Shown here piece after piece: positions 3,409 through 37,615 of a stretch of DNA of 64,000 bases. The stretch's first letter is position 1, and each line of letters begins with the position of its first letter. A model generated the notes under the pieces. That model was given only the letters and a program-made list of their open reading frames with translations. It was not told the origin of the DNA and did not search any database. The stretch comes from Escherichia coli (GTDB lineage Bacteria; Pseudomonadota; Gammaproteobacteria; Enterobacterales; Enterobacteriaceae). The position numbers and the translations under genes were made by a program. Where the stretch lies: assembly GCF_003334315.1 (NCBI RefSeq), contig NZ_QOWR01000009.1; one strand, written 5' to 3'.

Positions 3409-3434
3409 CATCCTCTCCCTCATGGGAGAGGATG
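3409..3434. terminator. Bidirectional intrinsic terminator hairpin between the convergent transporter gene and fbaB
   Basis: Perfect 11-bp inverted repeat CATCCTCTCCC/GGGAGAGGATG with a 4-nt loop, flanked by an A-rich run upstream and T-rich sequence downstream. Confidence 0.5.
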
Positions 3435-3442
3435 ATTTCACA

Positions 3443-6029: not shown

Positions 6030-7030
6030 AAACAGAACGTATTCTCGGTGCTCTTTATGGGCAGGCGTTAGGGGATGCGATGGGGATGCCCTCCGAGCTT
6101 TGGCCACGCAGCCGCGTTAAAGCACACTTTGGCTGGATTGACCGTTTTCTTCCTGGACCAAAGGAGAATAACGCGGCCTGTTATTTTAACCGCGCCGAAT
6201 TCACCGACGATACCTCGATGGCGCTGTGTCTGGCGGATGCGTTACTGGAACGTGAAGGCAAGATCGATCCGAATCTGATTGGGCGTAATATTCTCGACTG
6301 GGCGCTGCGTTTCGACGCCTTTAACAAAAACGTACTTGGTCCGACCTCGAAGATTGCGCTTAACGCCATTCGCGACGGTAAACCCATTGCTGAACTGGAA
6401 AACAACGGCGTGACCAACGGCGCAGCGATGCGCGTCTCGCCATTAGGTTGTTTGCTTCCGGCGCACGATGTTGATTCCTTTATTGATGATGTGGCGCTGG
6501 CGTCCAGCCCGACCCATAAATCCGATCTGGCGATTGCAGGCGCGGTAGTCATCGCATGGGCGATTTCTCGTGCCATTGACGGAGAAAGCTGGTCAGCGAT
6601 TGTAGATTCACTGCCTTCAATTGCGCGACATGCACAGCAAAAACGCATCACTACCTTCAGCGCCTCACTGGCAGCACGTCTGGAGATTGCGCTGAAAATT
6701 GTGCGCAATGCCGACGGCACCGAATCCGCCAGCGAACAGCTTTACCAGGTCGTTGGCGCAGGTACCAGCACTATTGAGTCCGTTCCGTGCGCCATTGCGC
6801 TGGTTGAACTGGCACAAACCGACCCGAATCGCTGCGCCGTCCTGTGCGCTAACCTTGGCGGCGACACAGACACCATCGGCGCTATGGCGACGGCGATTTG
6901 CGGCGCGTTGCATGGCGTTAACGCTATCGATCCTGCATTAAAGGCGGAACTGGATGCGGTAAATCAGCTTGATTTCAACCGCTATGCCACAGCGCTGGCG
7001 AAATATCGTCAACAACGGGAGGCGGTATGA
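6026..7030 (+). CDS. yegU: ADP-ribosylglycohydrolase family protein
   Basis: 334 aa; start overlaps the yegT stop by 4 nt (translational coupling). Confidence 0.85.
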   Translation: MKTERILGALYGQALGDAMGMPSELWPRSRVKAHFGWIDRFLPGPKENNAACYFNRAEFTDDTSMALCLADALLEREGKIDPNLIGRNILDWALRFDAFNKNVLGPTSKIALNAIRDGKPIAELENNGVTNGAAMRVSPLGCLLPAHDVDSFIDDVALASSPTHKSDLAIAGAVVIAWAISRAIDGESWSAIVDSLPSIARHAQQKRITTFSASLAARLEIALKIVRNADGTESASEQLYQVVGAGTSTIESVPCAIALVELAQTDPNRCAVLCANLGGDTDTIGAMATAICGALHGVNAIDPALKAELDAVNQLDFNRYATALAKYRQQREAV

Positions 7031-7992
7031 GCGGCGCTCGATTACACACGCTGCTGCCTGAATTAACCTCGCGTCAGCCGGTGATGGTCGTCGGCGCGGC
7101 GGTCATTGATGTGATCGCCGACGCTTATGCCCTCCCCTGGCGTGGGTGCGATATCGAACTGAAGCAGCAGAGCGTTAACGTTGGCGGCTGCGCACTGAAT
7201 ATTGCCGTGGCGTTAAAGCGCCTCGGCATCGAAGCGGGTAATGCCTTGCCGCTCGGTCAGGGCGTGTGGGCGGAGATTATTCGCAACCGGATGGCGAAAG
7301 AGGGGTTAATCAGCCTGATCGATAACGCCGAAGGCGATAACGGCTGGTGTCTGGCGCTGGTTGAGCCGGATGGCGAACGCACTTTTATGTCATTCAGCGG
7401 TGTGGAAAATCAGTGGAATCGCCAGTGGCTGGCGCGATTAACCGTTGCGCCTGGCAGCCTGCTCTATTTTTCCGGTTATCAACTGGCCTCGCCCTGCGGC
7501 GAATTGTTAGTGGAATGGCTGGAAAAGCTGCAAGACGTGACGCCGTTTATCGATTTTGGCCCACGTATCGGCGATATCCCGGACGCATTACTGGCGCGGA
7601 TCATGGCCTGTCGACCTTTAGTATCACTCAATCGTCAAGAGGCTGAGATTGCCGCCGAACGTTTTGCTTTATCCGCAGAGATAACAACACTTGGCAAGCA
7701 ATGGCAGGAGAAATCTGCCGCGCCGTTGATCGTTCGTCTCGATAAAGAGGGTGCATGGTATTTCAGCAACGACGCTTCTGGCTGCATTCCGGCATTTCCA
7801 ACGCAAGTTGTAGACACCATTGGGGCGGGCGACAGTCATGCAGGTGGCGTACTTGCCGGGCTGGCCTCTGGTCTGCCACTGGCGGATGCCGTATTACTGG
7901 GCAATGCAGTGGCGTCGTGGGTTGTCGGGCATCGGGGCGGTGATTGTGCGCCAACGCGCGAGGAACTACTCCTCGCACACAAAAACGTATAG
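7027..7992 (+). CDS. yegV: PfkB/ribokinase-family sugar or nucleoside kinase
   Basis: 321 aa with the GAGD motif near the C-terminus; 4-nt overlap with yegU. Confidence 0.85.
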   Translation: MSGARLHTLLPELTSRQPVMVVGAAVIDVIADAYALPWRGCDIELKQQSVNVGGCALNIAVALKRLGIEAGNALPLGQGVWAEIIRNRMAKEGLISLIDNAEGDNGWCLALVEPDGERTFMSFSGVENQWNRQWLARLTVAPGSLLYFSGYQLASPCGELLVEWLEKLQDVTPFIDFGPRIGDIPDALLARIMACRPLVSLNRQEAEIAAERFALSAEITTLGKQWQEKSAAPLIVRLDKEGAWYFSNDASGCIPAFPTQVVDTIGAGDSHAGGVLAGLASGLPLADAVLLGNAVASWVVGHRGGDCAPTREELLLAHKNV

Positions 7993-8712
7993 ATCGCTGC
8001 GACAGTGGCTAATGCTGTACTCAATAGGCCGTTGCTGTTGGTCAAGCGCCACTTGCTTGATCACCAGCACCGGTATTTTGCTATCTAACTGAATATGTGA
8101 CTGAAACTCGGCATCCGGCATCCGGGCGCTAACGCGGGAACGTGTACGTTGTGGGTAAATGTGCTGGCTGCGGAAATAGTCATAAAGTGAAATCCCGATG
8201 GCATCAACATCATGAATTAAATGCGCCGGAACCCACGATTCCTCAATCGATACCGCTTCTTCATCGACATAGCGAATACGCTTAAGCAAAAAGACATCAC
8301 TTCCTGCTTCGACCGCCAGCTGCTGCGCGACTTCTTCGGGACATTTCACGACACGCTTGTTAACCCATAGCGTATCGGGCTTTTTCCCGCGCAATACCAC
8401 CTGCTGAGAAAAACCTCGCGCTTCTTTCAACGAGTATTCGAAGATGTTGTTGATCTGCGTGCCGTAACCGCGCGAACGCGTCACCACACCCTCTTCTTCC
8501 AGCGCCTGCATCGCCTTGCGCACCGTAATGCGCGAAACGCCGGTTAACTGACTTAAATCACGCTCACCGGGCAAAATATTGCCATGCTCCAGCACCCCGC
8601 TGCGCACGGCATTTTTTACCGTTTCGGCAAACTTAATATAAAGCGGCGTGTTATCCGCAGCTAAAATACGCTCGTTCAGTTGGGCAATCAGCTGGGTATG
8701 CGCTTGTTCCAT
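7966..8712 (-). CDS. yegW: GntR/HutC-family transcriptional regulator
   Basis: 248 aa; N-terminal winged-helix region (...LPGERDLSQLTGVSRITVRKAMQAL...) and a UTRA-like C-terminal part. Confidence 0.85.
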   Translation of the reverse strand: MEQAHTQLIAQLNERILAADNTPLYIKFAETVKNAVRSGVLEHGNILPGERDLSQLTGVSRITVRKAMQALEEEGVVTRSRGYGTQINNIFEYSLKEARGFSQQVVLRGKKPDTLWVNKRVVKCPEEVAQQLAVEAGSDVFLLKRIRYVDEEAVSIEESWVPAHLIHDVDAIGISLYDYFRSQHIYPQRTRSRVSARMPDAEFQSHIQLDSKIPVLVIKQVALDQQQRPIEYSISHCRSDLYVFVCEE

Positions 8713-8763
8713 TTGTCTTTTTCCTGCCAGGGAGTCTGGTGGGAGTATATCACTGCTTCTTAT

Positions 8764-9591
8764 TTAAGGCGTTTCTTTAATCCCATCAACGAATCCCTGC
8801 AACTCCTCCACCGTGCCATTAAACACATTAAAATCCACCGGACCATTGATGCCATCTACCTGTCCACGGTCGGAATGCTGCCAGAAGCGCCAGGCCATTC
8901 CGTCATTGTCCGGACGACGTTGATAATAGTGAGCCACCCACCACGGATATTCATTAAAATAGCCCGCCAGATTCGTGTGATAAAAAACGGCTCCTGAGTA
9001 AATAATCGGCTTTTTTCCCGTGCGTTTTTCTACCATTTTTAGCCACTGACTTACCCGCTTGCGTAATTCTTTTGCCGATAATTTTCCCCGTTCTTCTACG
9101 TCCAGCACGGCAGGGAAATCGCCTTGTGAGAAATCCACCGTTTGCAGAAATAATCGTGCCTGAACCGGCGCTGCTACCGACGGGGAGAAATAATGATACG
9201 CCCCGCGCAGCAGGCCATTTTCGCGGCTTAGTTGCCAGTTACGCGAAAAATAGGGGTCCACCAGCTTTTCGCCTTCCGTCGCCTTAATAAAAGCAAACTG
9301 TAAGCGGATACCGTTGTCGCGCATTTTTGCCACCCGCTGCCAGTCGATCCGCTCCTGCCAGCGAGAAACATCTATTCCGTGAATGGTGTAACTGGCAGGA
9401 ATGCGAATAGCGAAAGATTTAACCGGGCGATAACCGTAGAAATGGATGTAGTCTTTAATCTGAATTGCTGTCGAATAGAAAAAATTCACCGTCTGACGCG
9501 GATAAATTGCAACGATAGAAATTAGCCCAAGAGCGCATAATAGAGAGGTGAGTTTTTTTCGACTGGTAATTCTTAGCTGCATTGGTTTCAT
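8764..9591 (-). CDS. yegX: Glycoside hydrolase family 25 (lysozyme-like) protein
   Basis: 275-aa ORF with an N-terminal signal/anchor; the true start may be the internal ATG 3 codons downstream. Confidence 0.8.
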   Translation of the reverse strand: MKPMQLRITSRKKLTSLLCALGLISIVAIYPRQTVNFFYSTAIQIKDYIHFYGYRPVKSFAIRIPASYTIHGIDVSRWQERIDWQRVAKMRDNGIRLQFAFIKATEGEKLVDPYFSRNWQLSRENGLLRGAYHYFSPSVAAPVQARLFLQTVDFSQGDFPAVLDVEERGKLSAKELRKRVSQWLKMVEKRTGKKPIIYSGAVFYHTNLAGYFNEYPWWVAHYYQRRPDNDGMAWRFWQHSDRGQVDGINGPVDFNVFNGTVEELQGFVDGIKETP

Positions 9592-9646
9592 CCCTGAATG
9601 TCAGTGCAAAAGACTGACAATAACCAAAGCAGCTATAGTACGGTGC

Positions 9647-10447
9647 TCACCACCAGGCGTGGAAGTGGTGAACCGGACCAATACCGTGACCAACTTCCAG
9701 CGTGTCGGCCTGGGCTAACGCCGATGAAAGCCAGCTTTTTGCCTCCTGTACGGTGTCAGCCCAGTTTGTATGGCGCGGGCGTAGTGCAGCCAACGCCGCA
9801 GAGAGTGTACAACCAGTGCCGTGGGTGTTTTTGGTCATAATGCGCGGTGCGGTAAACCGTTGTTCACCCTCGCGGGTAAACAGCCAGTCCGGGCTTTGCT
9901 CATCATCCAGATGACCACCTTTCATTAGCACTGCGCCACAGCCCATCGCCAACAGCGATCGCCCTTGTTCCAGCATTTCCTGTTCGGTGCGCGCGTGTGG
10001 CGCGTCGAGCAAGGCGGCAGCTTCGGGCAAGTTTGGCGTTATTAATGAAACCTGTGGCAATAATCGACTGCGCAGCGTAGCAACCGCCGAAGGTGAAAGC
10101 AGCGGGTCGCCGCTTTTTGCCAGCATAACGGTGTCGAGTACCACGTTTTGGATCTGATAACGTTGCAACCGTTCTGCCACCGCTTCAACAATATCGGTTT
10201 CCGCCAACATACCGATTTTAGTGGTATCGATTCGCACATCGCTGAACACCGAATCGAGCTGGGCGGCGACAAAATCAGGCTCAATGCGATACACCGACTG
10301 TACGCCACGGGTATTTTGCGCCACCAGTGCAGTAATAACTGAGCAACCATAAGCGCCAAGTGCCGAGAAGGTTTTAAGATCGGCCTGAATCCCCGCACCA
10401 CCACTCGGATCAGTACCGGCAATCGTCAGAGCGTTAATTCGTTTCAT
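9647..10447 (-). CDS. thiD: Hydroxymethylpyrimidine/phosphomethylpyrimidine kinase
   Basis: 266 aa, beginning [31 protein letters not shown].... Confidence 0.9.
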
Positions 10448-18380: not shown

Positions 18381-18420
18381 AAAGCCGAAATCATTTATAT
18401 AAATGATTTCGGCTTTCTAA
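18381..18420 (-). terminator. Intrinsic terminator downstream of yehE
   Basis: AGCCGAAATCATTT-ataaa-AATGATTTCGGCT hairpin with flanking A/T runs. Confidence 0.5.
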
Positions 18421-22404: not shown

Positions 22405-25400
22405 ATGAGACACTTTATCTATCAGGACGAAAAATCACATAAATTCTGGGCGGTGGAGCAACAGGGAAACGAGTTGCATATCAGTTGGGGAAAAGTTGGC
22501 ACCAAAGGGCAAAGTCAGATAAAAAGTTTTTCAGATGCTGCGGCAGCGGAAAAAGCGGAACTTAAGCTGATTGCGGAGAAGGTGAAGAAGGGGTATGTGG
22601 AGCAAGCGAAGGATAATTCTTTGCAACCTTCCCAAACGGTAACGGGCTCTCTCAAGGTAGCGGACTTATCCACCATTATTCAGGAACAACCCTCTTTCGT
22701 AGCAGAAACCCGTGCGCCTGACAAAAATACAGATGCTGTTTTACCGTGGCTGGCGAAAGATATTGCTGTCGTTTTTCCGCCCGAAGTTGTACACACCACG
22801 TTAAGTCATCGCCGCTTTCCCGGAGTTCCTGTTCAGCAAGCAGACAAATTGACCCAATTACGTCGCTTAGCCTGTAGTGTGTCGCAACGGGATAATAAAA
22901 CAGCCACATTTGACTTCAGCGCCTGTTCTTTAGAATGGCAAAACACCGTCGCCCAGGCGATCAGTCAGATCGACGGCCTGAAAACAACACAGTTACCATC
23001 ACCAGTAATGGCTGTACTCACGGCACTTGAAATGAAATGCACAAGATATAAAGTGCGTGAGGATGTTATGGATCAGATCGTCCAGGAAGGCGGTCTGGAA
23101 TATGCTACTGATGTAATAATACACCTTCAACAGATTGATATTGAATGGGATTATGCGAATAATGTCATTATTATTCTGCCGTCTGGCATTGCACCTAGCT
23201 ACTTGGAGCAATATTCCAGATTTGAATTACGCCTACGTAAACATTTATCACTGACGGAAGAGTCTCTCTGGCAAAAATGTGCACAAAAACTTATTGCCGC
23301 AATTCCACATATTCCAGAATGGCGGCAACCATTAATTGCTTTGTTATTACCCGAAAAACCAGAAATTGCACATGAAATTGCCCAGCGTCTACTGGGGCAA
23401 AAAAAATTACCCTCGCTTGAGTGGTTAAAAATAGTGGCGACTGATGAGCACATTCTTGCCTCATTAGAAAAATATCACGAACCATATGCCATTTTTGATG
23501 ATTACTATTGTGGTGCGATATGGTCAGCCACCGTATTACAGGAGCAAGGTGTTGCAGCCCTGCCCCGATTTGCTCCCTATGCCGCAAGTGACTACTGCGC
23601 CGATGTGTTGCGTCATATCAATCATCCGTTCGCATTGACACTGCTTATACGTGTAGCCGGGCAAACTAAACGCTGTCACGATCGGATGACGAAAGCCATT
23701 GCTGCGTTCCCACATGCAGCAATGGCGGCACTGACGGAACTTCTTGGGCAAAAAGAAGAGAACAGTTGGCGCATTATGCTAATGACAATGCTTATCTCAC
23801 AACCAGCACTGGCAGAACAGGTCATTCCCTGGCTCTCGACACCCGCAGTTGCCGTACTGAAATCATGCCAGCAACAACTGACACAGCCCTCAAACCATGC
23901 CAGCGCCGATCTACTGCCAGCCGTAGTAGTCTCCCCTCCCTGGCTTTCGAAAAAGAAAAAATCGCCGATTCCGGTGCTGGATTTAGCGCCATTAGGCATT
24001 GAGCCAATCTGTTATCTGACAGAAGAAATCAGTAATCAACTTTTGGCGAAATATATCTGGTATTCAAAACACATCACGGTTAGCCATGAAGAAAGTACTA
24101 CCAACCTGTTGGCAAGGATGGGTTTTCAACGACGGATCGCTGGTACATATATTAAAGCTCCCGAAGCGGTAGTTGAGGCATGGCTAAATGAAGATTATTC
24201 AACCTTACTAAGTGAATTTAAGGTGTTTCATTCACCTACCGGGCATTATTGGCAGTTGGGGATTTTGACAACATTGCCGCTGGAGAAAGCAGTAAAAGCA
24301 TGGAATGCCCTTACCCTATCTCCACATACCGATACCGAATACTCCATGTTACATTTTGGACTCAAAGGGTTACCTGGGTTAGTAAACTCACTTGCACGCT
24401 ATCCACAAGAAGCCTTGCCCATCACGAATTACTTCGCAGCGAGTGAGCTGGCTCCTGCCGTCGCCCGTGCCTTCAACAAACTGAAAACGCTACGCGAAAA
24501 CGCCCGTAGCTGGCTGTTGAAATACCCGGAACATGCCCTTACCGGCCTGCTGCCTGCGGCGCTCGGCAAAGCCGGTGAAGCACAGGATAACGCCCGCGCT
24601 GCCTTGCGTATGCTTACCGAAAACGGTCATCAGCCATTACTGCAAGAAATCGCCCGACGTTATAACCAGCCGGAAGTAACCGATGCGGTGAACGCTCTGC
24701 TTGCGCTCGATCCCTTAGATAATCACCCGACAAAAATCCCCACTCTTCCGGCCTTTTATCAGCCATCGCTCTGGACGCGCCCGGTATTAAAAGCAAATGC
24801 CCAATCACTGCCAGATAGCGCCCTCCTCCACCTCGGTGAAATGCTCCGCTTCCCTCAGGAAGAGGCTCTGTATCCGGGATTATTGCAGGTGAAAGACGTC
24901 TGTTCCGCCGACTCACTGGCGGGATTTGCCTGGGATCTGTTTACCGCCTGGCAGACCGCTGGCGCGCCGTCGAAAGAGAGTTGGGCGTTCACTGCGTTAG
25001 GCGTTCTCGGTAACGATGACACCGCCCGCAAACTGACGCCATTAATACGCGCCTGGCCTGGTGAATCCCAGCATAAACGCGCCACCGTTGGGTTGGATAT
25101 TCTCGCTGCTATCGGTAGTGATATCGCCCTTATGCAGCTTAACGGCATCGCCCAGAAACTGAAATTCAAAGCATTACAGGAGCGGGCAAAAGAAAAAATT
25201 GCCGACATTGCCGAGAGCCGCGAACTCACGGTGGCGGAGCTTGAAGATCGGTTAGCACCGGATCTCGGTCTGGATGATAACGGTTCGCTGCTGCTGGATT
25301 TTGGCCCACGGCAGTTCACCGTCAGCTTTGATGAAACCTTAAAACCGTTTGTGCGTGATGTTTCCGGCAGCCGCCTGAAGGACCTGCCCAAACCGAACAA

Positions 25401-26199
25401 AAGCGATGATGAAACGCGGGCGAACGATGCGGTTAACCGCTACAAATTGCTGAAAAAAGATGCGCGTACCATCGCCGCCCAGCAGGTAGCAAGGCTGGAA
25501 TCCGCCATGTGCCTGCGCCGCCGCTGGTCGCTGGAAAACTTCCAGCTCTTCCTGGTTGAGCATCCGCTGGTTCGTCACTTAACCCGCCGTCTGATTTGGG
25601 GCGTTTATAGCGCCGAAAACCAGCTACTGGCTTGCTTTCGCGTAGCAGAAGATAACAGCTCCAGCACCGCTGACGATGATCTTTTCACCCTGCCGGAAGG
25701 CGATATCTCTATCGGCACTCCTCACGTTCTGGAAATATCACCAACGGATGCTGCCGCCTTTGGTCAGCTTTTTGCCGACTACGAACTGCTACCACCGTTC
25801 CGCCAGCTCGACCGTAACAGCTACGCCCTGACAGAAGCCGAGCGCAATGCCAGTGAACTGACCCGCTGGGCAGGCAGAAAATGCCCGAGTGGTCGGGTCA
25901 TGGGGCTGGCGAATAAAGGCTGGATAAAGGGCGAACCACAGGATGGAGGCTGGATCGGATGGATGATCAAACCTTTGGGTCGCTGGTCGTTAATCATGGA
26001 AATCGATGAAGGCTTTGCGGTAGGCATGTCGCCAGCCGAACTCAGCGCTGAGCAGCTCTTAAGCAAGCTGTGGCTATGGGAAGGCAAAGCAGAAAGATAT
26101 GGCTGGGGGAGTAATTCAACACAGGAAGCGCAGTTCTCCGTAATCGATGCCATCACCGCCAGCGAGCTAATTAACGATATTGAAGCCCTGTTTGAATAA
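22405..26199 (+). CDS. molR: Giant WGR-domain protein (so-called molybdate metabolism regulator), intact here
   Basis: Uninterrupted 1264-aa ORF. The N-terminal ~80 aa form a WGR domain (FWAVEQQGNELHISWGKVGTKGQ...). The rest is paralogous to YehI. Confidence 0.8.
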   Translation: MRHFIYQDEKSHKFWAVEQQGNELHISWGKVGTKGQSQIKSFSDAAAAEKAELKLIAEKVKKGYVEQAKDNSLQPSQTVTGSLKVADLSTIIQEQPSFVAETRAPDKNTDAVLPWLAKDIAVVFPPEVVHTTLSHRRFPGVPVQQADKLTQLRRLACSVSQRDNKTATFDFSACSLEWQNTVAQAISQIDGLKTTQLPSPVMAVLTALEMKCTRYKVREDVMDQIVQEGGLEYATDVIIHLQQIDIEWDYANNVIIILPSGIAPSYLEQYSRFELRLRKHLSLTEESLWQKCAQKLIAAIPHIPEWRQPLIALLLPEKPEIAHEIAQRLLGQKKLPSLEWLKIVATDEHILASLEKYHEPYAIFDDYYCGAIWSATVLQEQGVAALPRFAPYAASDYCADVLRHINHPFALTLLIRVAGQTKRCHDRMTKAIAAFPHAAMAALTELLGQKEENSWRIMLMTMLISQPALAEQVIPWLSTPAVAVLKSCQQQLTQPSNHASADLLPAVVVSPPWLSKKKKSPIPVLDLAPLGIEPICYLTEEISNQLLAKYIWYSKHITVSHEESTTNLLARMGFQRRIAGTYIKAPEAVVEAWLNEDYSTLLSEFKVFHSPTGHYWQLGILTTLPLEKAVKAWNALTLSPHTDTEYSMLHFGLKGLPGLVNSLARYPQEALPITNYFAASELAPAVARAFNKLKTLRENARSWLLKYPEHALTGLLPAALGKAGEAQDNARAALRMLTENGHQPLLQEIARRYNQPEVTDAVNALLALDPLDNHPTKIPTLPAFYQPSLWTRPVLKANAQSLPDSALLHLGEMLRFPQEEALYPGLLQVKDVCSADSLAGFAWDLFTAWQTAGAPSKESWAFTALGVLGNDDTARKLTPLIRAWPGESQHKRATVGLDILAAIGSDIALMQLNGIAQKLKFKALQERAKEKIADIAESRELTVAELEDRLAPDLGLDDNGSLLLDFGPRQFTVSFDETLKPFVRDVSGSRLKDLPKPNKSDDETRANDAVNRYKLLKKDARTIAAQQVARLESAMCLRRRWSLENFQLFLVEHPLVRHLTRRLIWGVYSAENQLLACFRVAEDNSSSTADDDLFTLPEGDISIGTPHVLEISPTDAAAFGQLFADYELLPPFRQLDRNSYALTEAERNASELTRWAGRKCPSGRVMGLANKGWIKGEPQDGGWIGWMIKPLGRWSLIMEIDEGFAVGMSPAELSAEQLLSKLWLWEGKAERYGWGSNSTQEAQFSVIDAITASELINDIEALFE

Positions 26200-26208
26200 G
26201 GAAAGAGC

Positions 26209-29200
26209 ATGGACAAGGAATTACCGTGGCTGGCGGATAACGCCCAACTGGAACTGAAATATAAAAAAGGCAAAACGCCGCTCAGTCATCGTCGCTGGCC
26301 GGGCGAACCAGTGTCCGTTATCACTGGAAGTCTCATCCAGACATTGGGTGATGAATTGCTACAAAAAGCTGAGAAGAAAAAAAACATTGTCTGGCGTTAT
26401 GAGAATTTTTCACTGGAGTGGCAGTCCGCCATCACGCAGGCCATCAACTTGATCGGCGAACACAAACCCTCAATCCCGGACCGGACAATGGCGGCGCTAG
26501 CCTGTATCGCGCAAAATGACAGCCAACAGTTGCTCGACGAAATCGTCCAACAAGAGGGGCTGGAATATGCGACTGAGGTGGTGATTGCACGCCAGTTTAT
26601 TGCGCGGTGTTATGAGAGTGATCCTCTGGTAGTGACATTGCAGTATCAGGACGAGGATTATGGCTATGGTTATCGCTCAGAAACCTATAACGAATTCGAT
26701 CTCCGACTGCGTAAGCATCTCTCTCTGGCAGAGGAAAGCTGCTGGCAGCGTTGCGCCGACAAACTCATTGCCGCACTACCAGGAATAACCAAAGTTCGCC
26801 GCCCTTTTATTGCGCTGATCCTCCCGGAAAAACCAGAAATAGCCAATGAGTTGGTAGGCCTTGAATGCCCGCGAACTCATTTTCATTCTAAGGAGTGGTT
26901 AAAAGTTGTTGCTAATGACCCCACAGCGGTGAGAAAACTCGAACACTACTGGAGCCAGGATATATTTAGCGATCGAGAAGCCAGCTACATGTCGCATGAA
27001 AACCACTTCGGCTACGCGGCCTGCGCCGCCCTTTTGCGCGAACAAGGACTGGCAGCCATTCCGCGCCTCGCGATGTATGCCCATAAAGAAGATTGCGGCA
27101 GTCTGCTGGTACAAATTAACCATCCGCAAGTCATCCGCACCTTGCTACTGGTGGCTGATAAAAACAAACCCAGCCTGCAACGTGTAGCTAAATACCATAA
27201 AAACTTCCCCCATGCGACGCTCGCCGCACTGGCAGAACTGCTGGCGTTAACAGAACCACCAGCCCGCCCTGGTTATCCAATCATCGAAGACAAAAAGCTG
27301 CCTGCACAGCAAAAAGCACGCGATGAATACTGGCGTACGCTGTTACAAACGCTGATGGCATCGCAGCCACAACTGGCAGCAGAAGTGATGCCGTGGTTAA
27401 GTACTCAACCCCAGTCAGTGCTGAAGAGTTATTTATCGGCACCGCCCAAACCGGTTATTGATGGCACCGATAACAGCAATCTGCCAGAAATCCTCGTTTC
27501 ACCACCGTGGCGTAGTAAGAAAAAAATGACAGCTCCACGTCTTGATTTGGCACCGCTCGAATTAACTCCGCAAGTTTACTGGCAACCAGGCGAACAAGAG
27601 AGGCTTGCCGCCACTGAGCCTGCCCGTTATTTCAGCACGGAATCTCTTGCGCAACGCATGGAACAAAAAAGTGGACGAGTTGTATTACAGGAACTGGGTT
27701 TTGGGGATGATGTATGGCTGTTTCTGAATTATATACTCCCCGGAAAACTGGATGCTGCACGCAATTCACTCTTTGTTCAGTGGCATTACTACCAGGGGCG
27801 GGTTGAAGAGATCCTGAATGGCTGGAACTCCCCGGAAGCACAATTAGCAGAACAGGCGCTCCGCAGCGGTCACATAGAAGCGTTAATTAACATATGGGAA
27901 AATGACAACTACTCACATTATCGTCCGGAAAAGAGTGTCTGGAACCTGTATTTATTGGCACAGTTGCCGCGTGAGATGGCTTTGACCTTCTGGCTGCGTA
28001 TCAATGAGAAAAAGCATCTGTTCGCGGGTGAGGACTATTTTCTCAGTATCCTCGGATTGGATGCGCTACCAGGTCTGCTGTTGGCTTTTTCACATCGTCC
28101 AAAAGAAACATTTCCGTTAATTTTAAATTTTGGCGCAACAGAACTGGCGCTGCCTGTTGCCCACGTCTGGCGACGTTTCGCGGCGCAGCGTGATCTGGCT
28201 CGCCAGTGGATTTTACAATGGCCGGAACATACGGCTAGTGCACTTATCCCTCTTGTCTTTACCAAACCCAGCGATAATAGCGAAGCCGCATTACTTGCCC
28301 TGCGTTTACTGTACGAACAGGGACATGGCGAATTGCTACAAACCGTGGCAAACCGCTGGCAGCGTACAGATGTATGGTCTGCCCTGGAGCAGTTGCTTAA
28401 ACAGGGTCCAATGGACATTTACCCGGCACGCATTCCAAAAGCCCCTGATTTCTGGCATCCGCAAATGTGGTCCAGGCCGCGCCTTATCACTAATAATCAA
28501 ACTGTTACCAATGACGCTCTGGAAATTATCGGCGAAATGCTGCGCTTTACCCAGGGGGGACGTTTTTATAGCGGGCTGGAACAACTGAAAACGTTCTGCC
28601 AGCCACAAACGCTGACAGCTTTTGCCTGGGATCTCTTCACTGCGTGGCAACAAGCTGGTGCCCCCGCAAAAGACAACTGGGCATTTCTGGCGTTAAGTCT
28701 CTTTGGTGACGAAAGCACGGCACGGGATCTGACGACACAGATCCTCGCCTGGCCACAAGAAGGCAAATCTGCCCGTGCTGTCAGCGGCCTGAACATCCTT
28801 ACCCTGATGAATAATGATATGGCGCTGATACAGCTGCATCATATATCGCAACGGGCTAAATCCCGCCCCTTACGTGATAACGCGGCGGAATTTCTTCAGG
28901 TGGTCGCAGAAAATCGCGGGCTAAGCCAGGAAGAGCTAGCGGACAGATTAGTCCCAACCCTGGGCCTTGATGATCCGCAGGCGTTGAGTTTTGATTTTGG
29001 TCCCCGGCAGTTTACCGTTCGCTTCGATGAAAATCTCAACCCGGTTATCTTTGATCAGCAAAACGTTCGCCAGAAAAGCGTTCCCCGTTTGCGCGCCGAT
29101 GACGATCAACTGAAAGCGCCCGAGGCACTGGCCCGACTAAAAGGGCTAAAAAAAGATGCTACTCAGGTGAGCAAAAACCTGCTCCCGCGTCTTGAAACGG

Positions 29201-29841
29201 CCCTACGTACCACCCGACGCTGGTCGCTGGCAGATTTTCATTCTCTGTTTGTTAATCATCCCTTTACCCGTCTGGTTACCCAGCGATTAATATGGGGGGT
29301 TTATCCGGCAAATGAACCGCGTTGTTTACTCAAAGCCTTTCGTGTGGCCGCAGAGGGGGAGTTCTGCAATGCGCAAGATGAGCCAATTGACCTGCCTGCG
29401 GACGCTCTGATTGGCATTGCCCACCCGTTAGAAATGACAGCAGAAATGCGCAGTGAATTTGCACAGCTTTTTGCCGATTACGAAATTATGCCGCCTTTTC
29501 GCCAGTTGTCGCGCCGCACGGTGCTGCTCACACCTGACGAGTCAACCAGTAACAGCCTGACTCGCTGGGAAGGTAAATCCGCTACCGTTGGGCAACTTAT
29601 GGGAATGCGATACAAAGGCTGGGAGTCAGGCTATGAGGACGCATTTGTCTATAACCTGGGTGAGTACCGGCTGGTCCTTAAGTTTTCACCCGGTTTTAAC
29701 CACTACAATGTTGATAGCAAAGCGCTAATGAGCTTCCGTTCTCTTCGAGTGTACCGTGACAATAAATCCGTCACTTTTGCCGAACTTGATGTGTTTGATT
29801 TGAGTGAGGCGTTAAGCGCACCTGACGTCATTTTCCATTAA
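26209..29841 (+). CDS. yehI: Giant uncharacterised protein, MolR paralogue lacking the WGR domain
   Basis: 1210 aa; long blocks shared with MolR (VSPPW.SKKK, FDFGPRQFTV.FDE, LFADYE..PPFRQL). Confidence 0.85.
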   Translation: MDKELPWLADNAQLELKYKKGKTPLSHRRWPGEPVSVITGSLIQTLGDELLQKAEKKKNIVWRYENFSLEWQSAITQAINLIGEHKPSIPDRTMAALACIAQNDSQQLLDEIVQQEGLEYATEVVIARQFIARCYESDPLVVTLQYQDEDYGYGYRSETYNEFDLRLRKHLSLAEESCWQRCADKLIAALPGITKVRRPFIALILPEKPEIANELVGLECPRTHFHSKEWLKVVANDPTAVRKLEHYWSQDIFSDREASYMSHENHFGYAACAALLREQGLAAIPRLAMYAHKEDCGSLLVQINHPQVIRTLLLVADKNKPSLQRVAKYHKNFPHATLAALAELLALTEPPARPGYPIIEDKKLPAQQKARDEYWRTLLQTLMASQPQLAAEVMPWLSTQPQSVLKSYLSAPPKPVIDGTDNSNLPEILVSPPWRSKKKMTAPRLDLAPLELTPQVYWQPGEQERLAATEPARYFSTESLAQRMEQKSGRVVLQELGFGDDVWLFLNYILPGKLDAARNSLFVQWHYYQGRVEEILNGWNSPEAQLAEQALRSGHIEALINIWENDNYSHYRPEKSVWNLYLLAQLPREMALTFWLRINEKKHLFAGEDYFLSILGLDALPGLLLAFSHRPKETFPLILNFGATELALPVAHVWRRFAAQRDLARQWILQWPEHTASALIPLVFTKPSDNSEAALLALRLLYEQGHGELLQTVANRWQRTDVWSALEQLLKQGPMDIYPARIPKAPDFWHPQMWSRPRLITNNQTVTNDALEIIGEMLRFTQGGRFYSGLEQLKTFCQPQTLTAFAWDLFTAWQQAGAPAKDNWAFLALSLFGDESTARDLTTQILAWPQEGKSARAVSGLNILTLMNNDMALIQLHHISQRAKSRPLRDNAAEFLQVVAENRGLSQEELADRLVPTLGLDDPQALSFDFGPRQFTVRFDENLNPVIFDQQNVRQKSVPRLRADDDQLKAPEALARLKGLKKDATQVSKNLLPRLETALRTTRRWSLADFHSLFVNHPFTRLVTQRLIWGVYPANEPRCLLKAFRVAAEGEFCNAQDEPIDLPADALIGIAHPLEMTAEMRSEFAQLFADYEIMPPFRQLSRRTVLLTPDESTSNSLTRWEGKSATVGQLMGMRYKGWESGYEDAFVYNLGEYRLVLKFSPGFNHYNVDSKALMSFRSLRVYRDNKSVTFAELDVFDLSEALSAPDVIFH

Positions 29842-29901
29842 AACACAGCGGGCAGTGATGCAACTGCCCGTTATCAACACGACTTACCAGCGGGGAAAGC
29901 G

Positions 29902-30219
29902 ATGATCGTGCAAAAAGAGCTGGTTGCTATTTACGATTATGAGGTCCCTGTACCTGAAGATCCGTTTTCCTTCAGACTTGAGATCCATAAATGCTCTGAA
30001 TTATTTACAGGTTCCGTCTATCGACTGGAGCGATTCCGGCTACGTCCAACATTTCATCAACGTGATCGAGAAGATGCTGACCCGCTAATAAATGATGCGT
30101 TGATTTATATAAGAGATGAGTGTATTGATGAGCGGAAATTACGAGGTGAATCACCTGAAACTGTAATAGCAATTTTTAATCGTGAACTACAGAATATATT
30201 CAACCAAGAAATAGAATAA
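29902..30219 (+). CDS. yehK: Small uncharacterised protein
   Basis: 105-aa ORF directly downstream of yehI. Confidence 0.75.
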   Translation: MIVQKELVAIYDYEVPVPEDPFSFRLEIHKCSELFTGSVYRLERFRLRPTFHQRDREDADPLINDALIYIRDECIDERKLRGESPETVIAIFNRELQNIFNQEIE

Positions 30220-30389
30220 TATACTCTAAATAATTCAAATTGGTCCGATCCGGCGCACCGTCCCAATGGCCTGGATTATAAATCTCATTATCTTAATTGC
30301 AACGGGGTCCAGCCGTGGTTATAATTCGTTCGTTGGAACACGATGTTGCACAGGCTGTGGTGTTAGGCCTGAAAATAGTAAATAAAAGA

Positions 30390-30416
30390 ACCTGCCTCAC
30401 CAGCAGGTTTTTTTAT
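30390..30416 (+). terminator. Intrinsic terminator downstream of yehK
   Basis: AACCTGC-ctcacc-AGCAGGTT hairpin followed by TTTTTTT. Confidence 0.55.
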
Positions 30417-30525
30417 TTACTGTGATCTGCTTTCCAGATATTTTTCGCTCAAACAACTAATGCGCCAAACATTTATTGCGCGTAAAATATCGTTTATTTC
30501 ATTAATACATTTCAGGGATGAATAT

Positions 30526-31613
30526 ATGTCACCGCAGAATAATCATCTGCAGCGTCCGCCTGCTGCTGTGTTATACGCCGATGAACTGGCAAAATTAAAA
30601 CAAAATGATAACGCACCTTGCCCGCCCGGTTGGCAGTTAAGTTTGCCTGCGGCCCGTGCTTTTATCCTTGGCGACGAAGCGCAAAATATCAGCCGTAAAG
30701 TGGTGATTAGCCCCTCCGCTGTCGAACGTATGTTAGTCACTCTTGCTACCGGCCGCGGTTTGATGTTGGTGGGGGAACCGGGTACCGCAAAATCTCTTCT
30801 TTCTGAATTACTGGCAACCGCTATTAGCGGCGATGCCGGGTTAACCATCCAGGGCGGGGCATCTACCACCGAAGATCAAATCAAGTATGGCTGGAACTAC
30901 GCCCTGCTTATCAATCATGGTCCGTCAACGGAAGCGCTGGTCCCTGCCCCGCTTTATCAGGGAATGCGCGACGGCAAAATCGTCCGTTTCGAAGAGATAA
31001 CGCGTACACCGCTGGAAGTGCAGGACTGTCTGTTAGGTATGCTTTCTGACAGGGTGATGACGGTGCCGGAACTCACTGGTGAAGCCAGTCAGCTCTATGC
31101 GCGAGAAGGCTTTAATATTATTGCCACTGCCAATACCCGCGATCGCGGCGTCAATGAAATGAGTGCTGCGCTAAAGCGTCGCTTCGATTTTGAAACGGTT
31201 TTTCCGATTATGGATTTCGCCCAGGAGTTGGAACTGGTCGCCAGTGCTTCGGCGCGTTTGCTGGCCCATAGCGGTATTCCGCATAAAGTGCCTGACGCGG
31301 TACTGGAATTACTGGTCCGCACCTTCCGCGATCTGCGTGCCAACGGCGAAAAGAAAACGTCAATGGATACACTGACAGCGATTATGTCCACCGCTGAAGC
31401 CGTGAACGTGCCCATGCTGTGGGCGTCCGCGCCTGGTTTTTAGCGAATCGCGCGGGGGAGCCTGCCGACCTGGTGGAATGTATTGCCGGAACCATCGTCA
31501 AAGATAACGAAGAAGATCGCGCGCGTCTGCGCCGTTACTTCGAACAGCGTGTCGCCACACATAAAGAAGCTCACTGGCAGGCTTATTATCAAGCCCGCCA
31601 CCGCCTGCCGTGA
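30526..31613 (+). pseudogene. yehL: MoxR-type AAA+ ATPase, reading frame broken by a frameshift near 31395-31443
   Basis: Walker A (VGEPGTAKS) lies in ORF 30460..31443. The C-terminal part continues in a different frame (ORF 31419..31613) and ends 10 nt before the yehM start. The span is 1088 nt against the 1089 nt expected for the 362 aa I recall for K-12 YehL. Confidence 0.65.
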
Positions 31614-31623
31614 GGAAAGATGC

Positions 31624-33903
31624 ATGAGCGAGCCGTTAATTGTCGGCATCCGGCATCATAGTCCGGCCTGCGCCCGGCTGGTGAAATCGTTAATCGAAAG
31701 CCAGCGGCCACGATACGTGTTGATTGAAGGCCCGGCTGATTTTAATGACCGGGTAGACGAACTGTTTTTAGCCCACCAGCTTCCGGTAGCTATTTACAGT
31801 TATTGCCAGTATCAGGACGGTGCAGCCCCCGGGCGTGGTGCCTGGACGCCATTTGCTGAATTTTCGCCGGAGTGGCAGGCGCTACAAGCCGCACGTCGCA
31901 TTCAGGCACAAACTTACTTCATCGATTTGCCTTGCTGGGCGCAGAGTGAAGAAGAGGACGATTCGCCTGATACGCAAGATGAAAGCCAGGCCTTACTGCT
32001 GCGTGCCACCCGCATGGATAACAGCGATACCCTGTGGGATCACTTGTTCGAAGATGAAAGCCAGCAAACTGCATTACCCTCTGCGCTGGCGCACTATTTT
32101 GCCCAACTGCGGGGCGACGCCTCCGGCGATGCGCTCAATCGTCAGCGCGAAGCCTTTATGGCCCGCTGGATTGGATGGGCGATGCAGCAAAATAATGGCG
32201 ACGTGTTAGTTGTCTGCGGTGGCTGGCACGCTCCGGCACTGGCAAAGATGTGGCGCGAATGCCCTCAGAAAATTAACAAGCCAGAATTGCCCTCGCTGGC
32301 AGATGCCGTTACAGGTTGTTATCTCACACCCTACAGTGAAAAGCGCCTTGATGTGCTGGCAGGATACCTTTCAGGAATGCCTGCCCCGGTATGGCAAAAC
32401 TGGTGCTGGCAGTGGGGCTTGCAGAAGGCCGGTGAACAACTGCTAAAAACTATCCTTACCCGTTTGCGCCAGCACAAATTGCCCGCTTCTACCGCGGATA
32501 TGGCTGCCGCTCATCTGCATGCGATGGCGCTGGCACAGTTGCGCGGTCATACACTACCGTTACGCACTGACTGGCTGGATGCCATAGCAGGCTCGCTGAT
32601 TAAAGAAGCCCTGAACGCGCCGTTGCCGTGGAGCTATCGCGGCGTTATTCATCCCGATACCGATCCGATTCTGCTAACGTTGATAGACACATTAGCGGGT
32701 GACGGATTCGGTAAACTTGCCCCTTCTACGCCACAACCGCCTCTGCCAAAAGATGTCACCTGCGAACTGGAACGTACCGCAATCTCCCTTCCGGCGGAGC
32801 TTACCTTAAATCGCTTTACCCCCGATGGGCTGGCGCAAAGTCAGGTGTTACATCGGCTGGCAATACTGGAGATCCCTGGGATTGTACGCCAGCAGGGAAG
32901 TACACTGACACTTGCAGGCAACGGTGAAGAACGCTGGAAATTAACCCGCCCGCTTAGCCAGCATGCGGCATTGATTGAGGCCGCCTGTTTTGGTGCCACA
33001 CTCTAGGAAGCCGCACGCAATAAATTAGAAGCCGATATGCTGGACGCGGGCGGAATCGGCAGTATCACCACATGTCTTAGCCAGGAGGCGTTAGCGGGTC
33101 TGGCGTCCTTCAGTCAACAATTACTGGAGCAACTCACACTATTAATCGCCCAGGAAAATCAATTTGCCGAAATGGGCCAGGCGCTGGAAGTGCTTTATGC
33201 CTTATGGCGGCTGGATGAAATTAGCGGTATGCAAGGCGCGCAGATATTACAAACGACGTTATGCGCGACTATCGATCGCACGCTGTGGCTGTGTGAATCT
33301 AACGGCAGACCGGATGAAAAGGAGTTTCACGCTCACCTGCATAGCTGGCAAGCGCTTTGCCATATTCTGCGCGATCTACATAGCGGCGTTAATTTACCCG
33401 GCGTTTCTCTTTCTGCGGCGGTAGCCTTACTGGAGCGACGCAGTCAGGCAATTCATGCCCCGGCGCTGGATCGCGGCGCGGCTCTTGGCGCACTAATGCG
33501 TCTGGAACATCCCAACGCCAGTGCCGAAGCGGCGCTGACGATGCTGGCGCAGTTATCCCCGGCACAATCTGGTGAGGCGCTGCACGGTTTGCTGGCGCTG
33601 GCCCGCCATCAACTGGCCTGTCAGCCGGCATTTATCGCCGGTTTCAGCAGTCATTTAAATCAACTGAGTGAAGCCGATTTTATTAACGCCCTGCCCGATT
33701 TACGCGCGGCGATGGCCTGGCTACCACCACGAGAACGCGGGACGCTGGCGCATCAGGTGCTTGAGCATTATCAACTGGCGCAACTTCCCGTTTCGGCGCT
33801 GCAAATGCCGTTGCATTGTCCACCACAGGCCATTGCACATCATCAACAACTCGAACAGCAGGCACTGGCATCGCTGCAAAACTGGGGAGTTTTCCATGTC
33901 TGA
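31624..33903 (+). pseudogene. yehM: Large uncharacterised protein interrupted by an in-frame TAG at 33004-33006
   Basis: ORF 31483..33006 and ORF 33037..33903 are in the same frame, separated only by one amber codon. The total span is 2280 nt, exactly 759 codons plus stop. GAGGAAA ribosome-binding site before the ATG at 31624. Confidence 0.65.
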
Positions 33904-35032
33904 ACTGAACGATCTTCTGACCACCCGTGAGCTACAACGCTGGCGATTAATTCTTGGCGAAGCGGCAGAAACGACGCTTTGTGGGCTGGATGACAACGCC
34001 CGGCAGATAGACCACGCGCTGGAGTGGCTGTATGGGCGCGATCCTGAACGGCTCCAGCGTGGTGAACGTTCCGGTGGATTAGGTGGCTCAAATCTCACCA
34101 CCCCTGAGTGGATCAACAGTATTCACACGCTGTTTCCGCAGCAGGTGATTGAGCGGCTGGAAAGCGATGCCGTGCTGCGCTACGGCATTGAAGATGTGGT
34201 GACGAATCTCGACGTGCTGGAACGTATGCAGCCTTCTGAAAGCCTGCTACGCGCTGTTTTGCACACCAAACATCTGATGAACCCCGAAGTACTGGCTGCC
34301 GCCCGCCGGATAGTGTGCCAGGTTGTTGAAGAAATTATGGCTCGACTGGCAAAGGAAGTTCGTCAGGCTTTTTCTGGTGTCCGCGATCGCCGTCGCCGTT
34401 CATTTATTCCACTGGCGCGAAACTTTGATTTCAAAAGTACTCTGCGCGCCAACCTGCAACACTGGCACCCGCAACACGGCAAGTTGTATATCGAATCCCC
34501 CCGCTTTAACAGCCGCATTAAACGCCAAAGCGAACAATGGCAACTGGTCTTACTGGTTGATCAAAGCGGATCGATGGTCGATTCGGTGATCCACTCTGCG
34601 GTGATGGCGGCCTGTTTGTGGCAGTTACCCGGCATTCGTACCCATCTGGTGGCGTTTGACACAAGCGTCGTTGATCTCACGGCAGACGTTGCCGATCCGG
34701 TAGAGTTATTAATGAAAGTACAGTTGGGCGGCGGGACCAATATCGCCAGTGCCGTGGAGTATGGTCGGCAACTTATTGAACAACCAGCGAAAAGCGTCAT
34801 TATCCTCGTGAGCGATTTTTACGAAGGGGGTTCATCATCATTACTGACGCATCAGGTGAAAAAGTGTGTCCAGAGCGGCATCAAAGTGCTGGGACTGGCA
34901 GCGCTCGATAGCACCGCAACACCTTGCTATGACCGCGATACGGCCCAGGCGCTGGTTAATGTCGGCGCACAAATAGCCGCCATGACGCCGGGCGAGCTGG
35001 CATCATGGCTTGCGGAGAATCTTCAGTCATGA
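33896..35032 (+). CDS. yehP: von Willebrand factor A (VWA) domain protein with a MIDAS motif
   Basis: 378 aa from MSELNDLL; the MIDAS motif D-x-S-x-S (DQSGSM) is present; 8-nt overlap with the yehM stop. Confidence 0.85.
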   Translation: MSELNDLLTTRELQRWRLILGEAAETTLCGLDDNARQIDHALEWLYGRDPERLQRGERSGGLGGSNLTTPEWINSIHTLFPQQVIERLESDAVLRYGIEDVVTNLDVLERMQPSESLLRAVLHTKHLMNPEVLAAARRIVCQVVEEIMARLAKEVRQAFSGVRDRRRRSFIPLARNFDFKSTLRANLQHWHPQHGKLYIESPRFNSRIKRQSEQWQLVLLVDQSGSMVDSVIHSAVMAACLWQLPGIRTHLVAFDTSVVDLTADVADPVELLMKVQLGGGTNIASAVEYGRQLIEQPAKSVIILVSDFYEGGSSSLLTHQVKKCVQSGIKVLGLAALDSTATPCYDRDTAQALVNVGAQIAAMTPGELASWLAENLQS

Positions 35033-37029
35033 ATTCACTACGTCCGGAATTATTAGAACTGACACCGCAGGCCCTGACGGCGTTAAGCAATGCCGGTTTT
35101 GTTAAGCGCAGTCTTAAGGAACTGGAAAATGGCAACGTCCCGGAGATCAGCCATGAGAACGACGCTTTAATCGCCACCTTCAGTGACGGTGTCCGTACCC
35201 AGCTGGCGAACGGCCAGGCACTGAAAGAGGCTCAGTGCAGTTGCGGGGCCAACGGTATGTGCCGTCATCGCGTGATGCTGGTGTTAAGTTATCAACGACT
35301 TTGTGCCACCACTCAGTCTACGGAAAAAGAAGAAGAGTGGGATCCGGCAATCTGGCTGGAAGAACTGGCTACCCTTCCCGATGCTACCCGCAAACGCGCA
35401 CAGGCGCTGGTCGCTAAAGGCATCACCATTGAGTTGTTCTGTGCGCCGGGTGAAATTCCCTCTGCCCGCTTACCGATGAGCGATGTGCGTTTTTATTCCC
35501 GCAGCAGTATTCGTTTCGCCCGTTGTGATTGTATTGAAGGCACACTTTGCGAACATGTCGTACTGGCGGTACAGGCCTTCGTCGAGGCCAAAGCGCAGCA
35601 AGCAGAATTTAACCATTTAATCTGGCAGATGCGCAGCGAACACGTCACATCATCTGACGATCCGTTTGCCAGCGAAGAAGGCAACGCGTGTCGTCAATAT
35701 GTTCAGCAATTAAGCCAGACATTATGGCTTGGCGGCATCAGCCAGCCGCTCATCCATTACGAGGCAGCATTCAACCGCGCATTGCAGGCGGCAGAGACCT
35801 GCAACTGGCGCTGGGTGAGTGAATCGCTACGGCAACTGCGCGCCAGCGTTGATGCCTTCCACGCCCGCGCCAGCCACTATAATGCCGGAGAATGCTTACA
35901 TCAGCTTGCGGCATTAAACAGTCGATTAAATTGCGCACAAGAGATGGCCCGGCGCGACAGTATTGGTGAAGTTCCTCCTGTGCCGTGGCGCACGGTCGTT
36001 GGCTCTGGCATTGCCGGAGAAGCAAAGCTTGATCATCTGCGGCTGGTGTCTTTAGGTATGCGTTGCTGGCAGGATATTGAGCATTATGGTTTACGCATCT
36101 GGTTTACCGATCCCGACACCGGCAGTATTTTGCACCTTTCGCGCAGTTGGCCGCGAAGTGAACAGGAAAACTCACCGGCAGCTACGCGTCGGCTGTTTAG
36201 TTTTCAGGCTGGCGCACTGGCGGGCGGGCAAATTGTTTCACAAGCAGCAAAACGCAGTGCCGATGGCGAGCTGCTGTTAGCTACCCGCAACCGCTTAAGC
36301 AGCGTTGTGCCGCTGTCGCCTGATGCCTGGCAAATGTTGAGCGCGCCGTTACGCCAGCCGGGCATTGTGGCTTTGCGGGAATATTTACGCCAGCGTCCCC
36401 CCGCCTGCATACGGCCTCTTAATCAGGTCGATAACTTATTTATTCTGCCGGTCGCTGAGTGTATTTCGCTCGGTTGGGACAGCAGCCGCCAGACGCTGGA
36501 TGCGCAGGTCATTAGCGGCGAAGGGGAAGATAATGTGCTGACGTTATCATTACCAGCCTCAGCCAGCGCACCTTATGCCGTTGAACGCATGGCGGTGCTT
36601 TTGCAACAAACAGACGACCCCGTGTGTCTGGTTTCTGGCTTTGTCAGTTTTGTTGAAGGGCAATTGACACTGGAACCACGGGTGATGATGACAAAAACCC
36701 GTGCCTGGGCGCTGGACGCAGAAACTACGCCTGTGGCACCGCTACCTTCTGCCAGCGTTTTGCCTGTGCCGTCTACTGCTCATCAGTTGCTGATACGCTG
36801 CCAGGCGTTACTTATTCAACTGCTCCATAACGGCTGGCGCTATCAGGAACAGAGTGCTATTGGTCAGGCAGAGTTGCTGGCGAATGACCTCACCGCGGTG
36901 GGTTTTTATCGGCTGGCACATGTGTTGGGACAATTTCGTAATACAGAAAGCGAGGCACGGGTAGAAGCAATGAATAACGGTGTTTTGCTTTGCGAACAAT
37001 TATTCCCCATGCTTCAGCAACAAGGATGA
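35029..37029 (+). CDS. yehQ: SWIM zinc-finger domain protein
   Basis: Two C-x-C-x(n)-C-x-H motifs (CSCGANGMCRH and CDCIEGTLCEH). ATGA start/stop overlap with yehP. Length from this start is about 666 aa. Confidence 0.8.
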   Translation: MNSLRPELLELTPQALTALSNAGFVKRSLKELENGNVPEISHENDALIATFSDGVRTQLANGQALKEAQCSCGANGMCRHRVMLVLSYQRLCATTQSTEKEEEWDPAIWLEELATLPDATRKRAQALVAKGITIELFCAPGEIPSARLPMSDVRFYSRSSIRFARCDCIEGTLCEHVVLAVQAFVEAKAQQAEFNHLIWQMRSEHVTSSDDPFASEEGNACRQYVQQLSQTLWLGGISQPLIHYEAAFNRALQAAETCNWRWVSESLRQLRASVDAFHARASHYNAGECLHQLAALNSRLNCAQEMARRDSIGEVPPVPWRTVVGSGIAGEAKLDHLRLVSLGMRCWQDIEHYGLRIWFTDPDTGSILHLSRSWPRSEQENSPAATRRLFSFQAGALAGGQIVSQAAKRSADGELLLATRNRLSSVVPLSPDAWQMLSAPLRQPGIVALREYLRQRPPACIRPLNQVDNLFILPVAECISLGWDSSRQTLDAQVISGEGEDNVLTLSLPASASAPYAVERMAVLLQQTDDPVCLVSGFVSFVEGQLTLEPRVMMTKTRAWALDAETTPVAPLPSASVLPVPSTAHQLLIRCQALLIQLLHNGWRYQEQSAIGQAELLANDLTAVGFYRLAHVLGQFRNTESEARVEAMNNGVLLCEQLFPMLQQQG

Positions 37030-37153
37030 AATAGTGCTTTTTACTAAGAGTTCTACTCCAGTTCCGGACTGCTCACGCCACGGTATTAGGCATATCCTAT
37101 ATAGCCCCTGGTGAGAGTCACCAGTTCCTTGATTAAATAAAATGGAGTTTTAC

Positions 37154-37615
37154 ATGAAGGCTTTCAATAAGCTGTTTTCCCTCGTTGTTGCATCTGTTCT
37201 GGTTTTCTCTCTTGCTGGCTGCGGTGACAAAGAAGAATCGAAGAAATTCAGCGCCAATCTGAACGGCACTGAAATTGCCATTACCTATGTCTACAAAGGT
37301 GACAAGGTGCTTAAGCAATCTTCTGAAACCAAAATTCAATTTGCCTCCATTGGTGCAACCACCAAAGAAGATGCTGCCAAGACACTTGAGCCGTTAAGCG
37401 CCAAATACAAAAACATCGCGGGTGTTGAAGAAAAATTAACCTATACCGATACCTACGCGCAGGAAAACGTGACTATCGATATGGAAAAAGTGGATTTTAA
37501 AGCCCTGCAGGGTATTTCAGGAATCAACGTTTCTGCTGAAGATGCCAAAAAAGGTATCACTATGGCGCAAATGGAACTGGTGATGAAAGCCGCTGGTTTT
37601 AAAGAAGTGAAATAA
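37154..37615 (+). CDS. yehR: Lipoprotein (DUF1307 family)
   Basis: 153 aa; lipobox LAGC after the signal peptide. Confidence 0.85.
   Translation: MKAFNKLFSLVVASVLVFSLAGCGDKEESKKFSANLNGTEIAITYVYKGDKVLKQSSETKIQFASIGATTKEDAAKTLEPLSAKYKNIAGVEEKLTYTDTYAQENVTIDMEKVDFKALQGISGINVSAEDAKKGITMAQMELVMKAAGFKEVK

Follow-up and report, generated by a model that had tools for sequence, protein, structure and literature searches.

The coding sequence of the AAA+ ATPase YehL occupies two reading frames in the Escherichia coli contig analysed here, which raises the question of whether the gene has been inactivated by mutation, whether its sequence was damaged in sequencing or assembly, or whether both frames are used, through switching or recoding. 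The whole stretch of DNA that was analysed, referred to below as the window, is 64,000 nt long and is phylogroup-A-like E. coli; the features on which the argument turns are collected in Table 1.

Table 1. Positions in the window of the yehL and yehM lesions and of the genes around them.
Feature	Position	Strand	Description
yehL pseudogene	30526..31613	+	1088 nt, against 1089 nt for the intact orthologue, whose product is a MoxR-type AAA+ ATPase of 362 aa
Deletion site	31408..31413	+	GTGCCC in the window, GTGGCCC in intact genes; boundary of codons 295 and 296
Truncated yehL frame	30526..31443	+	305 aa: wild-type residues 1-295 followed by out-of-frame PMLWASAPGF
Premature TAG	31441..31443	+	begins with the final T of the T5 run at 31437-31441
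Stranded wild-type C-terminal yehL frame	31413..31613	+	residues 297-362
yehM (DUF5682) pseudogene	31624..33903	+	frame otherwise intact, one amber codon
yehM amber Q461*	33004..33006	+	CAG to TAG; splits the gene into 460-aa and 288-aa ORFs
yehP (vWA domain)	33896..35032	+	intact; 100% identity to reference, no internal stop; Pfam VWA_CoxE, VWA_2
yehQ (SWIM zinc finger)	35029..37029	+	intact, last gene of the operon; 2 substitutions, no internal stop

A missing G in yehL

The YehL start, MSPQNN, lies at 30526 in the first of the two open reading frames (30460..31443), which terminates with the TAG at 31441-31443; the second (31419..31613) closes at the TGA at 31611-31613. As mechanically called, the latter begins with a GTG at 31419 and encodes 64 aa; no Shine-Dalgarno-like sequence was found upstream of this GTG. 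Between the yehL TGA and the ATG of yehM (31624) are ten nucleotides; the ribosome-binding site, GAGGAAAG, shares bases with the TGA of yehL. A terminator-like hairpin at 31420-31435, followed by a T-run, also came up in a consensus scan; every strain has it within its wild-type coding sequence, and it was judged not meaningful.

Of 5,426 complete E. coli genomes searched by megablast with positions 30460-31700, 5,224 contain the segment. No match was identical, the best ones measuring 1242 nt against the 1241 nt of the query. The yehL genes annotated in three complete-genome records are 1089 nt long and encode a 362-aa ATP-binding protein (WP_001300974.1), followed after 10 nt by yehM (DUF5682) and then by yehP (vWA). 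The 1241-nt segment, aligned with three complete genomes, differs from them only at 31410, where it lacks a G; the lost base belongs to a GG pair that directly precedes the CCC run at 31411-31413. The frame of YehL is lost after Val295, and ten wrong codons lead into the TAG, giving 305 rather than 362 aa. The original prediction had described the split ORFs, 1088 nt where 1089 would be needed, and had attributed them to a 1-nt deletion in the gene for a 362-aa ATPase. The ORF list and the annotated genes agree with the first statement and the alignment to intact genes with the second, so that its core reading of the frameshift is supported. It had also proposed an alignment with yehL from other E. 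coli genomes, which returned the single missing G, and it had put the lost base in the C-run around 31411-31413, a placement that the alignment corrects to the GG pair.

A frameshift pseudogene is recognised by an indel whose length, measured against close intact orthologues, is not divisible by three and which leads to an early stop; the window carries such an indel. The surroundings of the gene are those of yehL, with yehK upstream and yehM, yehP and yehQ downstream in the locus order yehI-yehK-yehL-yehM-yehP-yehQ. The locus and synteny are those of E. coli yehL (b2119 in K-12; WP_001300974.1), and the 1241 nt are alike bar one base; relative to the intact gene, the window allele lacks one G, encodes 305 aa and has lost the C-terminal helical region.

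Just upstream of yehL, the yehK-yehL intergenic region contains a full-length Rfam match to OrzO-P, a type I antitoxin sRNA, at 30339-30414 on the plus strand (99.9 bits; gathering score 60). The match is accompanied by a sigma-70-like promoter at 30297-30325 and by a hairpin with a T-run at 30389-30420. In positions 30150-30530 we saw no ORF of at least 20 aa that resembles the ZorO toxin, so the antitoxin may be orphaned.

An amber codon in yehM and the order of events

The yehL deletion is one of only two disruptive changes in the window, the other being the amber codon in yehM, where position 33004 is T in the window and C in strain 027_SK3 (codon 461). The amber codon is present in none of the complete E. 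coli genomes. Exact matches to the two fragments that it creates were found on 27 and 20 public contigs, several NCBI draft assemblies among them. In four of the five amber-carrying places shown, yehL is intact and encodes 362 aa (SRR30285751, ERR972103, GCA_015675075.1 and GCA_025412885.1), the sole one with a 305-aa YehL being SRR3824135. The nearest sisters of the window (GCA_015675075.1 and SRR30285751) differ from it by 1-2 substitutions plus the G. Because a wider set of drafts has the amber codon together with an intact yehL, we place the yehL deletion as a second hit; by parsimony, the amber codon would be the earlier change, defining a clade, and the deletion a later one in a single sub-lineage. 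The original prediction was right about the frameshift in yehL and missed the adjoining amber codon, by which that frameshift is seen to be a second hit.

The history that we propose from these comparisons would begin with yehM Q461*, arising first in the wider clade while yehL remained intact. After that, yehL was probably released from selection and decayed, through the presumed deletion of one G of the GG pair at the boundary of codons 295 and 296. Ribosomes would then read PMLWASAPGF and stop at the TAG, with the nucleotide-binding core kept. In K-12, yehL and yehM are up-regulated only on deletion of hns together with stpA, so the operon is silenced (PMC3686432), and a segment of ~7 kb that includes yehM and yehL has been deleted in Shigella sonnei lineages 2 and 3, where the deletion is fixed (PMC12795559). 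Both observations fit a dispensable locus in neutral erosion.

Several other routes to a damaged yeh locus are on record in public sequences. In other E. coli, 305-aa YehL variants (P0032, P0033, P0035 and P0038) result from three or more further, independent 1-nt deletions that fall within the 40 nt leading up to this TAG (31405-31443); the commonest of them reduces the T5 run at 31437-31441 to T4 (P0032 and P0038), and one such sequence is on 38 contigs. Strain 720632 has an IS1 between yehK and yehL and an internal stop in yehI, and IS1 lies inside the yehL-yehM segment in NZ_OZ547461.1 and NZ_CP147044.1. These 1-nt deletions and insertions, and the S. sonnei deletion, resemble the window allele as erosion of the same dispensable locus and differ from the G deletion at 31410 in position or type. 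Given that the locus is dispensable and that other strains carry IS1, frameshifts or a deletion there, a private frameshift in yehL is an ordinary event, and the lesion is an ordinary strain- or sub-lineage-specific pseudogene of an already known kind. A change of another sort was seen in yehI of GCA_025412885.1, an otherwise near-identical relative, in which the equivalent of window positions 28131-28416 has 52 substitutions in 286 nt; this patch looks like recombination or gene conversion, possibly from the paralogous DUF4132 gene directly upstream.

Neutral decay is set against the idea that the second loss was selected, an orphan YehL having become harmful once YehM was truncated, so that the frameshift would be a compensatory inactivation rather than drift. 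In favour of this, the lesions lie in neighbouring genes in a nested order, the amber codon preceding the frameshift, and nothing else among the 31 substitutions and one indel in the conserved 54 kb of the window is disruptive. We nevertheless consider selected loss unlikely: most of the amber-clade members shown keep an intact yehL, with no repeated or rapid loss seen, little protein is expected from an H-NS-silenced operon, and one event was observed. The present data fit either neutral decay or selected loss, and nothing in them points to selection. It would follow, if the frameshift were the compensatory silencing of an orphan MoxR-type ATPase made harmful by YehM truncation, to which we assign a slight chance, that YehL and YehM form a mutually restraining pair in an uncharacterised MoxR-vWA-SWIM system. 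The system containing YehL is about 75% conserved between Enterobacteriaceae and Burkholderiales.

Authenticity of the deletion

The deletion allele is rare. An 81-nt query centred on it matched 5,216 complete E. coli genomes, none of which has the allele (best identity 98.8%, the shortfall being the single gap), and the 41-nt deletion junction gave no matches in metagenome contigs. These absences, together with the fact that a single-base deletion is the commonest type of consensus error and that the support here comes from assembled contigs, are what a sequencing or assembly error would predict, the missing G then being a consensus artefact in a strain whose yehL is really intact. Set against this is the quality of the rest of the sequence. 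Over 60,560 nt aligned to the closest complete genome, that of strain 027_SK3, the window has 111 substitutions and one indel, the G in yehL; since this is the sole indel in 60.5 kb, the assembly is not indel-prone. All of the 50 other window genes tested, yehM excepted, could be mapped from 027_SK3 uninterrupted. The G is missing from a GG pair and not from a homopolymer, T5 (31437) and G5 (31454) being the closest runs; about 20 nt separate the site from the closest Dcm motif, CCTGG at 31432.

The same allele was, in addition, recovered from other data. The exact 305-aa product (P0031) is encoded by two Logan contigs in the public protein collection. One of these, SRR3824135_123 (27.1 kb), comes from a k-mer-based assembly and is 100% identical to window positions 24526-37443 (12.9 kb), deletion included. 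Because this contig does not reach the length of the window and has one end next to the palindrome at 18381-18416, we conclude that the raw reads behind it were assembled separately from the window. With the same deletion in a separately assembled contig, and a second Logan contig encoding the same product, an artefact of the assembler or of polishing becomes very unlikely. SRR3824135 and the window may represent one isolate, and a mutation acquired in the sequenced culture or laboratory stock would then be compatible with the data. Apart from the window, the two Logan contigs are the only sequences in which the deletion at 31410 was found. Two short contigs that encode the 64-aa C-terminal ORF (P0016) were considered as further support and set aside as uninformative: one starts at the equivalent of window position 31416, behind adapter-like sequence, and the other has a run of N across the deletion site.

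In our judgement the yehL deletion is, with high probability, a genuine lineage-specific loss-of-function mutation, the second hit after the yehM amber codon. The original prediction had left room for a real strain-specific inactivation, a phase-variable tract or an assembly error; the independent contig and the sole indel in 60.5 kb favour the first, and the second finds no support, given the GG pair, the lack of a repeat and the lack of on/off variation at the site. A contingency tract that toggles yehL by slipped-strand mispairing might be suspected because differing 1-nt deletions in other strains reach the same TAG and give 305 aa, including T5 to T4 at 31437-31441. It is scarcely credible, however, at a run of two bases with no simple-sequence repeat, where the off state occurs in 0 of 5,216 genomes and the nearest sisters all have GG. 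The other 305-aa alleles arise at different positions and have the TAG in common only because no stop comes earlier in that frame; that they fall in one cluster reflects the grouping of proteins at 90% identity in the collection. Members of that cluster were examined as possible recurrences of the window allele and rejected, being different 1-nt deletions, and so they give no evidence of a hotspot at 31410.

The comparison with 027_SK3 also brought out features elsewhere in the window. Positions 1-3441 do not align to 027_SK3, which has the gat operon beside fbaB; the window has pentitol-type genes there (an FGGY pentulose kinase, an RbtT/DalT MFS transporter and an SDR oxidoreductase), an arrangement found in about 302 of 5,426 complete genomes, E. 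coli C included. From fbaB to thiD (3455-10080) the window has about 1.2% substitutions relative to 027_SK3 (80 in 6.6 kb), with 31 in the other 54 kb, and this part looks like a recombination tract beside the island junction. Between yehE and apbC, the sequence at 18381-18416 is a perfect 36-nt palindrome, AAAGCCGAAATCATTTATATAAATGATTTCGGCTTT, adjoined by one Logan contig end, which looks like a bidirectional terminator. Between preA and mglC are two 80-nt direct copies, at 62441-62520 and 62557-62636, that are about 91% identical and REP/BIME-like (GCCGGATGCGGCGTGAACGCCTTATCCGGCCTAC).

Consequences for YehL and relation to known systems

YehL has a MoxR-like structure and distant sequence similarity to midasin AAA modules. 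Pfam PF07728 (AAA_5) matches residues 79-220 of the repaired protein (E = 2.6e-34), a part that is kept in the truncated product, and the Walker A (GEPGTAKS, 83-90) and Walker B (IVRFEE, 152-157) motifs, which are largely invariant in an alignment of 28 sequences, are present in the window. The 28 homologues span Enterobacterales, Burkholderiales, Lysobacterales and Neisseriales-like taxa; full-length ones that are 73-87% identical come from Erwinia, Lysobacter, Burkholderia, Variovorax, Acidovorax, Chitinibacter and Iodobacter. Full-length identity of about 75% between E. coli and Burkholderia, Variovorax, Acidovorax, Lysobacter or Chitinibacter is unusually high, suggesting very strong constraint or a recent horizontal spread of the system.

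What the frameshift removes is also conserved. It falls within a near-invariant motif, MSTAEAVNVAHAVGVRAW, and residues 296-362 include 27 invariant and further near-invariant columns in the 28-sequence alignment. An AlphaFold model built on that alignment has a mean pLDDT of 64.5, with a poorly modelled ATPase core, and confident C-terminal helices (pLDDT about 80-90) at residues 289-307, 315-325, 329-345 and 349-358; in this predicted structure, the last 67 residues that are lost comprise half of the first of these helices and the three that follow. The C-terminal helical domain (about 231-362) is no longer complete in one frame in the window, and because of this loss we treat its yehL as a pseudogene allele and not as a functional member. 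Judged from the conserved columns and the model, the truncated YehL is very probably inactive or unstable. With translation ending 180 nt short of the yehM start, the tight translational coupling of yehL and yehM should be lost as well, which hardly matters where yehM is already broken.

Recoding at the T5 run, by a -1 shift of the ribosome or by slippage during transcription, could in principle yield a near-full-length protein, since a -1 slip of Phe-tRNA on GGT TTT TAG would regain the wild-type frame and the same operon has an experimentally supported +1 frameshift-prone site in yehP (PMC2790909), but such recoding is extremely improbable: no X XXY YYZ heptamer was found between 31396 and 31443, every homologue is encoded in one frame (full-length proteins of about 360-390 aa), the rescued product would keep PMLWASAPGF in place of AHAVGVRAWF, with eight invariant residues destroyed, the yehP site is +1, in another gene and in the wrong direction for a 1-nt deletion in yehL, and yehM is broken anyway. 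The 16-nt cassette GTGGAGTATGGTCGGC that constitutes the yehP site, an experimentally supported +1 ribosomal frameshift hotspot according to FSscan (PMC2790909), is present unchanged at 34754-34769.

A genuine deletion following the yehM amber codon has consequences for how the locus should be described. Both yehL and yehM are best annotated here as pseudogenes, in place of two or four hypothetical proteins listed separately, and yehLMPQ should be treated as a non-functional system in this strain. The nested lesions, yehM and then yehL, are a small and clean example of the stepwise erosion of an H-NS-silenced, dispensable operon, and the two of them could serve as lineage markers for the clade. 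They reveal nothing new about what the unusually conserved YehLMPQ does.

The operon encodes a MoxR-type ATPase, a DUF5682 protein, a vWA protein and a SWIM zinc-finger protein, with two DUF4132 proteins encoded upstream. None of the seven proteins of the yeh locus matched the PADLOC defence models, and searches of NCBIfam with the proteins of the locus gave sub-threshold matches only. The division of a coding sequence between two frames is shared with programmed frameshift genes such as prfB (+1) and dnaX (-1) and with the +1 hotspot in yehP. Unlike prfB and dnaX, yehL has no slippery site and its split is not conserved, and the deletion explains that split fully. With MoxR-vWA systems (MoxR/RavA-ViaA) the operon shares an AAA_5 ATPase encoded together with a vWA protein, here YehP; the bpMoxR domain of the ternary MoxR-vWA systems is also matched weakly (E = 0.0024). 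We read this as a resemblance, and not as evidence of membership. Unlike those systems, the yeh operon adds a DUF5682 protein (YehM) and a SWIM zinc-finger protein (YehQ).
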